DNA of 64,000 nt from assembly GCF_055900595.2 (NCBI RefSeq), contig NZ_CM148325.1; one strand, given 5' to 3'. Both the position numbers and the translations under genes were made by a program. Of this stretch, positions 44,641 through 46,316 are shown in pieces. The notes below the pieces were generated by a model. It saw only the letters and a list, made by a program, of their open reading frames with translations. It ran no database searches and had not been told where the DNA came from. How positions within the stretch are numbered: position 1 is the first letter of the stretch; every line of letters begins with the position of its first letter.

Positions 44641-45062
44641 TGTCATACCCTCAATTTGTTTTTTCATTTAACCCCACTGCGGGGCCGTTGAAATAACTAT
44701 ATCCCTGGGAATGGCAGACTTCCGTGAGTGGTTGGTTTCAGCGTGTAACGATATGTACAATAGCAGAACAAATTACAGAATTGATAATAACGTATTGTGA
44801 CTTAAGGAAAATTCAGCTACCAATAATAGTAGTCTTGATCGGGTTAACTATTTTACTACGTACAAAGCAGTACAATACCTGCGCATCAGTAATAAATGAC
44901 ACACAGCAAAATGAATCCGTTTCTTTGGATATTTATAATCCTGATGACACTAGATGCGCTGCGGGAATTGGCTGGCGCTTCGTCTATTTTAGGATGGCTA
45001 TTAACGTTGGTTTGAGCAGGCAATAAGTCCGGATGGGTATTTACCGCAGTCCGGACTTATTT

Positions 45063-46316
45063 TTAGGCGTGCAGACGACGATGCAAACGCGTCCCGACCA
45101 GCAGAGCAATGACCAGCATCAGAGCAATAAATGCGCCGACGCCGTTCCAGCCATAGTTATGCCAGAAAACACCACCCAGCGTCCCGGCAATACTCGACCC
45201 CAGATAGTAACTGAACAGATACAGCGAGGAGGCCTGGCCTTTAGCGCGTTTTGCGCGGGGGCCGATCCAGCTGCTGGCAACGGAGTGGGCTGCGAAGAAT
45301 CCGGCTGAGAAGAGTAACATTCCGGCAAAGATTAGCCACAGCGAGCTGAATAAGGTCATCAGTAAACCAAACAGCATAACCCCCGTCGAAAACAACATCA
45401 CTGGACCGCGCCCATAGCGGGTGGTCATGGTTCCGGCTTTGGGTGAGCTCCATGTACCGGTCAAATAAGCCAGCGATAATAAGCCAACCACGGCCTGACT
45501 GACATGCCAGGGGGAAAGCATCAACCGATAGCCGATGTAATTAAACAGCGTGACGAACGACCCCATCAGCAAAAAGCCTTCTGCGAACAATAACGGCAAT
45601 CCCCGGTCACGCCAGTGCAGACGAAAGTTGATAAATAACGTCTTTGGTCGCAGGGAAGTCGGGCGAAAATGGCGTGATTCCGGGAGGATTTTCCAGAACA
45701 TCAACGCCGAGGCCAGCGCGAAACAGCCGATAGCCGCCAGAGCAATTCGCCAGTTGAAAAAGTCCGTGAAGACACCGCTAATTAAGCGTCCGCTCATGCC
45801 GCCAATTGAGTTGCCGCTGATATACAACCCCATCGAAAAGGCCACGAAACTGGGGTGGATTTCCTCGCTAAGATAAGTCATGCCAACAGCTGCCACGCCA
45901 CTTAACGAAAGCCCAATCAAGGCGCGCATAATCAAAATGCCGTGCCAGCTGGTCATCATTGTCGAAAGTAACGTACAAATGGAGGCCAACAGTAGCGCCG
46001 TGACCATCACTGGTTTGCGACCAATGGCATCGGATAGCGGGCCAGTAAACAGCAAACCGATAGCCAACATCGCCGTTGAAATGGACAGTGAAATACTACT
46101 GTTCGCAGGCGTTAAGCCAAACTCCTGCGAAAGCACCGGAAGGATAGGTTGCACACAATAGAGAAGTGCGAAGGTTGCCAGTCCGGCAGAGAAAAGCGCC
46201 AGGGTGACGCGCATAAATTGCGGCGTACCGCGTTTAATAAATTGATTTGGCTGAGAAATGCTTTGCTTGTCAGTGACGCTTGCCGGAGCGCCATCAACAG
46301 TTGTAGTACGGCTCAC
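45063..46316 (-). CDS. ynfM: MFS transporter YnfM
   Basis: 417-aa 12-TM ORF. Confidence 0.9.
   Translation of the reverse strand: MSRTTTVDGAPASVTDKQSISQPNQFIKRGTPQFMRVTLALFSAGLATFALLYCVQPILPVLSQEFGLTPANSSISLSISTAMLAIGLLFTGPLSDAIGRKPVMVTALLLASICTLLSTMMTSWHGILIMRALIGLSLSGVAAVGMTYLSEEIHPSFVAFSMGLYISGNSIGGMSGRLISGVFTDFFNWRIALAAIGCFALASALMFWKILPESRHFRPTSLRPKTLFINFRLHWRDRGLPLLFAEGFLLMGSFVTLFNYIGYRLMLSPWHVSQAVVGLLSLAYLTGTWSSPKAGTMTTRYGRGPVMLFSTGVMLFGLLMTLFSSLWLIFAGMLLFSAGFFAAHSVASSWIGPRAKRAKGQASSLYLFSYYLGSSIAGTLGGVFWHNYGWNGVGAFIALMLVIALLVGTRLHRRLHA

Follow-up and report, generated by a model that had tools for sequence, protein, structure and literature searches.

A stem energy of about -15 to -21 kcal/mol lies within the range usual for E. 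coli intrinsic terminators, and small membrane proteins are known to be encoded beside transporters, such as AcrZ with AcrB and KdpF with KdpABC. Bidirectional terminators, in which one stem-loop lies between convergent stop codons, have also been described (Ju et al. 2019, as presented in bioRxiv 10.1101/2022.10.23.513370), and termination by collision has been proposed for hundreds of E. coli convergent pairs. The locus described here lies at the end of ynfM and has features in common with each of these systems.

The window, a stretch of 64,000 nucleotides of contig NZ_CM148325.1 (assembly GCF_055900595.2), is E. coli DNA with 97-99.8% identity to many RefSeq genomes. The local gene order is ydgD, ydgU and asr (minus strand), a 422-nt spacer, ynfM (minus strand) and ynfL; the RefSeq annotations of K-12 and of E. 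coli genomes nearly identical to this one confirm ynfM and asr. A first-pass annotation had noticed a long hairpin adjoining the ynfM stop codon, with a T-run on the plus strand while ynfM lies on the minus strand. The arms, the fold and a stop codon placed 1 nt from the stem base bear out the first observation, and the sequence and ORF coordinates the second. Our analysis indicates that the hairpin is most likely an ordinary transcription terminator whose T-run serves a small gene of the KPN_01571 family on the plus strand, and that the ynfM message probably ends at this stem as well.

A stem-loop between two convergent stop codons

Features of the ynfM-asr region, given in coordinates of the window
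Feature	Position	Strand	Description and basis
ydgU (samT)	44156..44239	-	27 aa, downstream of asr
Inverted repeat CTACCAATAATAGTAG	44817..44832	+	about 80 nt upstream of the small gene
Candidate -10 hexamer TACAAT (TAGAAT in K-12 and relatives)	44871..44876	+	putative
KPN_01571-family gene, 39 codons	44896..45015	+	ORF, NF033695 match, PGAP CDS, conservation; TGA at 45013-45015
ynfM-strand RNA past the G-C-closed core of the stem, UUAUUGCCUGCU	45015..45026	-	imperfect U-tract, 4 U in the first 8
Stem-loop	45022..45061	either (RNA)	outer stem 12 bp, inner stem imperfect, loop 4 nt; fold, covariation, single copy
Stem arms AATAAGTCCGGA and TCCGGACTTATT	45022..45033 and 45050..45061		paired with each other
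11-nt arms ATAAGTCCGGA and TCCGGACTTAT	45023..45033 and 45050..45060
Spacer between the 11-nt arms	45034..45049		16 nt
U-rich tract of the plus-strand transcript, TTATTTTT	45057..45064	+	7 U of 8; extends over the final stem pairs and into the ynfM stop
TTTT	45061..45064	+
ynfM (MFS transporter)	45063..46316	-	ORF; convergent with the small gene; TAA stop, complement of 45063-45065

The 11-nt arms are extended by one added A-T pair (45022/45061) to a 12-bp stem, after which TTT runs to 45064, and the spacer between them folds into a small imperfect inner stem that reduces the effective loop to 4 nt. Taken alone, the 40-nt stem-loop has a minimum free energy of -20.9 kcal/mol, identical for both strands. 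Within a 66-nt context the energy is -28.7 kcal/mol on the plus strand (z -4.9) and -25.8 kcal/mol on the minus strand (z -6.8), and none of 200 dinucleotide shuffles of this context was as stable. The small-gene TGA stands 6 nt upstream of the stem start and the T-run overlaps the ynfM stop, which places a single stem-loop, formable in both transcripts, within the 47-nt spacer between the convergent stops.

The plus-strand tract that follows the stem is UUAUUUUU, with 7 U in 8 positions and a T-score of 3.5. The ynfM-strand tail past the last G-C pair is UUAUUGCC, with 4 U in 8 and a T-score of 2.6 when the basal A-U pairs are counted as tract. The structural features of an intrinsic terminator are present in full on the plus strand and in part on the minus strand. 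The first-pass statement that the ynfM transcript would have no U-run was therefore too strong, since the basal A-U pairs provide a minus-strand tail of UUAUUG, although the plus strand is clearly the richer of the two. The ynfM gene of this genome ends in TAA after a 1-nt deletion relative to K-12 (GCCTGAAAAAT to GCCTAAAAAT, 45063-45066), which leaves the protein end and the T-run unchanged.

A generic promoter/terminator scan did not list the hairpin, and we infer that the 3-8 nt loop limit of the scan was responsible. Rfam covariance models run over 44200-45400 gave no match at the hairpin and matches at chance level only elsewhere.

Comparison of 11 distinct Escherichia sequences revealed that 98.6% of the cells of a 13-pair stem are paired, whereas slid registers reach 50% at most. 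Compensatory changes are seen at three stem pairs (U-A to C-G, A-U to G-C and C-G to U-A), and G-U intermediates occur. This pattern suggests selection on a stem at this position and not on its sequence; with so few sequences the Escherichia covariation is modest evidence, in agreement with the comparison across genera presented below. All E. coli variants examined, like the five Escherichia species loci, retain 5-6 consecutive T, and the ynfM-strand tail in the other Escherichia species is UUAUUGUC or UUAUUGUU, with 5-6 U in 8. The hairpin was found in 5421 of 5426 E. coli genomes, at a median of one place per genome and at two places at most. In one strain, E. coli GF60, IS200C separates the 3' arm (…CCGGACTTATT) from the T-run, having inserted precisely at their junction (L093 620-1335).

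A plus-strand small gene of the KPN_01571 family

The translation of the plus-strand ORF, MTHSKMNPFLWIFIILMTLDALRELAGASSILGWLLTLV, is a hydrophobic protein that begins MNPF..DALRELAGASSILGW..., and its residues 6-34 align with profile positions 1-29 of the 30 in NCBIfam NF033695 ("KPN_01571 family protein", model trnsprt_adja_30) at 64.1 bits, above the cutoff of 35. The hydrophobic N-terminal half suggests that the product would be a small membrane protein. PGAP calls a CDS at exactly this site in most E. coli genomes; in the K-12 MG1655 reference record nothing is annotated between ynfM and asr, and the ORF is intact there. The small gene is thus already named in RefSeq annotation, though uncharacterised, and missing from the K-12 reference. 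These data bear on the earlier proposal of a plus-strand terminator for an unannotated transcript: the anatomy fits, with a gene that stops 6 nt before the stem and a T-run on the same strand, but "unannotated" holds for the K-12 reference only.

The PGAP calls of the small gene vary, being 39, 34 or 23 aa long and labelled "family protein" or "hypothetical", and the KPN_01571-family proteins of E. coli and Shigella include many length variants. Part of this variation is inconsistent choice of the start codon by the annotation pipeline, since similar loci are called as 39 or 23 aa, and part is real disruption, as by the ISKpn26 insertion in strain J6. Given these variants, some strains may not need the gene or may not express it. 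In E. coli J6 (L088) the ISKpn26 transposase gene lies in the region between the small ORF and asr, and the small gene is not annotated.

The second ATG (44911) opens the conserved core, which has 30 codons. An alignment of this core in 28 sequences has no indels in any of the 30 codons, and pairwise differences at the three codon positions amount to 0.37, 0.13 and 0.54, with a pN/pS of 0.33 and synonymous sites near saturation. As judged from this coding signature, the small gene is a real protein-coding gene under purifying selection across genera. A 100-codon ORF on the plus strand (44724..45026) overlaps it in another frame, and the conservation search recovered only the 39-codon frame.

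The family itself is small, with 14 representatives in 1.8 billion proteins. A search of literature full text for KPN_01571 returned no paper, and only the supplement of a microproteome catalogue (PMC11188072), in which conserved intergenic small-ORF clusters of the family are listed for Citrobacter, Cronobacter and Salmonella. The report on SamT was considered as a possible description of the small ORF and set aside, as it concerns ydgU, the gene downstream of asr that was renamed samT and whose product inhibits the RstB sensor kinase (2026, PMC13425233); that gene is unrelated to the hairpin.

Paralogues of the small gene were also observed away from ynfM. One lies near yebV/yebW/rsmF (L089 2501-2640), convergent with a 43-aa gene, and is followed by a 6-bp hairpin whose U-rich tail is on the strand of the paralogue. 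Another is situated between yciY and a 136-aa gene near cls/tonB (L090 2501-2660), with no hairpin and an operon-like gap of 12 nt.

Upstream of the small gene, the hexamer TAGAAT is found at a fixed distance, about 35 nt before the MNPF start, in all gene-bearing Escherichia and Citrobacter loci, and the corresponding hexamer of the window could be its -10 element. We found no -35 partner for this candidate, the generic scan listed no promoter for the small gene, and no convincing sigma-70 promoter was recognised in this region. The inverted repeat farther upstream has like motifs, ACCATAATAG or CTAC..GTAG, in front of the homologous gene in Citrobacter, Kosakonia and Phytobacter, and it may be an operator or promoter element common to the divergent asr region. 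In a genomic SELEX study, RNA polymerase holoenzyme and H-NS were bound in the ynfM-asr spacer, and the peak was assigned to asr.

Published expression data were also searched. The supplements of Adams et al. 2021 and of the TERMITe paper, which are possibly incomplete, contain no 3' end or transcription start site at K-12 positions 16709xx-16711xx, and the ribosome-profiling supplements of Stringer 2021 and Hücker 2017, likewise possibly incomplete, do not list the small ORF. In Salmonella, ynfM is poorly expressed in standard media. The lack of 3'-end and ribosome-profiling signal weighs little, because these supplements may be incomplete and ynfM is poorly transcribed under standard conditions.

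The convergent pair across the Enterobacteriaceae

To place the E. coli locus among its relatives, 80 ynfM loci from species-representative genomes of Enterobacteriaceae were compared. Picking the lowest-energy hairpin over the 80 loci over-extended the stems by weak outer pairs, and this procedure was replaced by an analysis of the G-C-closed core; the latter fails at a few loci, which were assessed by eye. A homologue of the small gene lies directly downstream of ynfM, in convergent orientation, at 27 of the 80 species loci, and these span about a dozen genera, including Escherichia, some Citrobacter, Klebsiella, Raoultella, Kosakonia, Phytobacter and Pluralibacter, among others. A GC-rich stem-loop lies between the convergent stops, which are 28-114 nt apart, at 26 of the 27 pair-bearing loci; the exception is L062, in which the convergent pair has a spacer of 1 nt and no stem. 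Folded against shuffles, the 27 spacers gave a median z of -2.4 for the strand of the small gene and -3.0 for that of ynfM, and z was below -2 for 16 and 20 of them, respectively. A few very GC-rich spacers are not significant by the shuffle test, and their stem is visible nonetheless.

The sequence of the stem is unrelated between genera, while its position and pairing persist: it is AAGTCCGGA in Escherichia, ACCCGGGCAT in two Citrobacter species, ACGTGGCC in Klebsiella and Raoultella and CCCCGC in Kosakonia. The U-run varies as well. All five Escherichia species loci have UUAUUUUU(U) on the small-gene strand and UUAUUG(C/U)(C/U) on the ynfM strand. In Kosakonia and Phytobacter the small-gene strand has an A-run before the stem, and the ynfM strand has a run of 4-8 U past the stem (GGGGUUUUUUAUUU in L035, for instance); Klebsiella, Raoultella and several other genera have no clear U-run, or a weak one, on either strand. 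At the locus of Phytobacter massiliensis (L069) the spacer is occupied by a stem-loop judged by eye to be REP-like, which suggests that a stem of any kind suffices if it is stable.

In most ynfM loci a hairpin lies just past the stop codon, with or without the small gene. Where ynfM has no convergent partner, this hairpin usually has a normal U-run in the ynfM direction, as in L024, L028 and L032. At two loci with asr directly after ynfM (L057 and L074) there is no terminator hairpin behind ynfM. In these two and in two other species without the small gene (L029 and L067), the asr promoter motif GTACA-N5/6-GTTACA, which we take to be the RstA box, occurs about 10-50 nt past the ynfM stop. Since L057 and L074 have no hairpin between ynfM and this motif, read-through from ynfM into asr is not universally blocked.

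A separate structure was observed in Enterobacter, Leclercia, Cedecea and Buttiauxella, in which a conserved long helix, CCTCGTGT … ACACGAGG, lies about 5-90 nt past the ynfM stop (L021, L023, L030, L031, L037, L063, L070, L075, L076 and L082). The helix stops a few nt short of the start codon (ATG) of a co-directional gene (MKNNNYQQLTR…), and its Enterobacter versions surround an inner hairpin that has a T-run. This long helix after ynfM looks like an attenuator or leader structure.

Function of the hairpin and comparison with known systems

We consider it quite probable that the hairpin is a Rho-independent terminator placed between the convergent small gene and ynfM and acting on both, in an asymmetric, bidirectional manner. 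Because the U-run switches strand or is lost between genera while the position of the hairpin stays constant, the stem would serve both genes. On the plus strand, a polymerase leaving the small-gene stop would transcribe the 12-bp GC-cored stem and reach the U-rich tract; the hairpin would then form, the weak rU:dA hybrid would melt, and the transcript would be released near 45062-45066, giving a small-gene mRNA of about 180 nt if counted from the candidate -10. On the minus strand, the stem would form 1-2 nt past the ynfM stop and be followed by the poorer tract, and would there most likely act as a weaker terminator, as a 3' stem that keeps out exonucleases and sets the end of the ynfM mRNA, or as both. 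Residual read-through from ynfM would enter an untranslated stretch antisense to the small gene, where 78 nt of ynfM-strand RNA just past the stem contain much C and little G (32% and 18%); Rho could conceivably remove such transcripts before asr. The hairpin of the L089 paralogue, with a U-rich tail on its own strand, also counts for the terminator reading. Against it we count the blank outcome of the 3'-end and ribosome-profiling supplements searched, the candidate promoter without a -35 element, the length variants of the ORF, the absence of a hairpin at L062 and at L057 and L074, and the weak U-tract of the ynfM strand (4 of 8). The first-pass annotation had offered a choice between a plus-strand terminator and a 3' structure of ynfM; the first option is essentially right and the second is probably true in part, so that the choice itself is probably a false one, given that the position is kept while the U-run changes strand.

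The convergent geometry and the 47-nt spacer also suit a terminator of the collision type, in which the stem pauses the converging polymerases and head-on and trailing collisions end both transcripts. The published model needs a stem-loop between convergent genes and covers terminators that are unlike intrinsic ones (bioRxiv 10.1101/2022.10.23.513370), and in Klebsiella, Raoultella and several other genera the stem is kept with no real U-run on either strand. However, the plus strand of Escherichia has a textbook U-tract that is conserved across species, which makes a special mechanism unneeded there, and collisions would require substantial transcription from both sides, whereas ynfM is weakly expressed and expression of the small gene is presumed; on balance we regard this explanation as unlikely for the present hairpin, though hardly far-fetched. 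It is quite doubtful, too, that the hairpin serves ynfM only, as a U-tract-independent 3' stabiliser or processing stop with Rho ending transcription downstream, a silent small ORF in E. coli and a T-run that is no more than the complement of an A-run. Such a role would agree with the hairpin found just past the stop in most ynfM loci irrespective of the small gene, with the C-rich and G-poor RNA past the stem, which would suit Rho loading, and with the absence of small-gene expression from the 3'-end and ribosome-profiling supplements searched. Yet no Escherichia species or E. coli variant examined has lost the run of 5-6 T, and the small gene, which is under purifying selection across genera, stops 6 nt before the stem; moreover, at loci without a convergent partner (such as L024, L028 and L032) the U-run is usually on the ynfM strand, which shows that selection and not accident places it.

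The near-perfect palindromic arms, which contain TCCGGA, and the IS200C insertion at the junction of stem and T-run in one strain might instead recall an element acting at the DNA level, such as a REP/BIME-like repeat, a remnant of a mobile element or a palindromic protein-binding site. We hold this to be very improbable, as the hairpin is single-copy and has no Rfam match, its sequence turns over fully between genera while position and pairing stay, and G-U wobble intermediates are sensible for an RNA but not for a DNA-binding site. A REP/BIME repeat in particular was rejected on the copy number in the 5421 E. coli genomes (median one place, maximum two). A more speculative idea, to which we give little credence, extends the shared terminator: the convergent pair could be a regulatory unit in which transcription of the small gene and pausing at the stem tune the 3' end or stability of ynfM mRNA, through collision or through pairing of the complementary 3' ends of about 40 nt, and in which the small protein modulates YnfM. 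If so, the conserved convergent arrangement, with a stem fixed in position and free in sequence across about a dozen genera, would reflect selection for coupling and not for two independent gene ends.

The proposed shared terminator explains an apparent "wrong-strand" terminator, and the practical value of this is small. It follows from the annotation data that the K-12 reference is without a conserved gene, encoding a probably membrane-embedded small protein, beside ynfM, and any deletion or engineering of ynfM or of the asr promoter region should take this gene into account. The locus also offers a clean natural example of a shared-terminator stem that is fixed in position while its U-tract switches strand, which bears on the function of bidirectional terminators.

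The small gene resembles those of AcrZ and KdpF in that it lies beside a transporter gene, an adjacency that the model name trnsprt_adja_30 also records, and encodes a protein of about 30 residues whose N-terminal half is hydrophobic. It differs from them in being convergent with ynfM and not co-transcribed, and in having paralogues at loci without a transporter; its link to YnfM is one of position. With REP/BIME elements the hairpin shares an imperfect palindrome, an intergenic position after a gene end and a possible stabilising effect on the upstream mRNA, but it is single-copy and without the REP consensus. The bidirectional terminators of Ju et al. 2019, so far as they are presented in bioRxiv 10.1101/2022.10.23.513370, likewise have one stem-loop between convergent stops that could form in both transcripts, with a position conserved across genera; in comparison with them the present element, a putative member of the group, is asymmetric, with a good U-tract on one strand, and one of its partners has only 30-39 codons. 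In common with the canonical Rho-independent terminators of E. coli it has a GC-rich stem and an immediate plus-strand U-tract a few nt past a stop codon. In contrast to them it has a nominal inter-arm spacer of 16 nt, closed by an imperfect inner stem only, an A-U stem base, a U-tract partly sequestered by the upstream A-run, and a second gene adjoining it on the opposite strand. The hairpin is an unremarkable addition to a well-known class.
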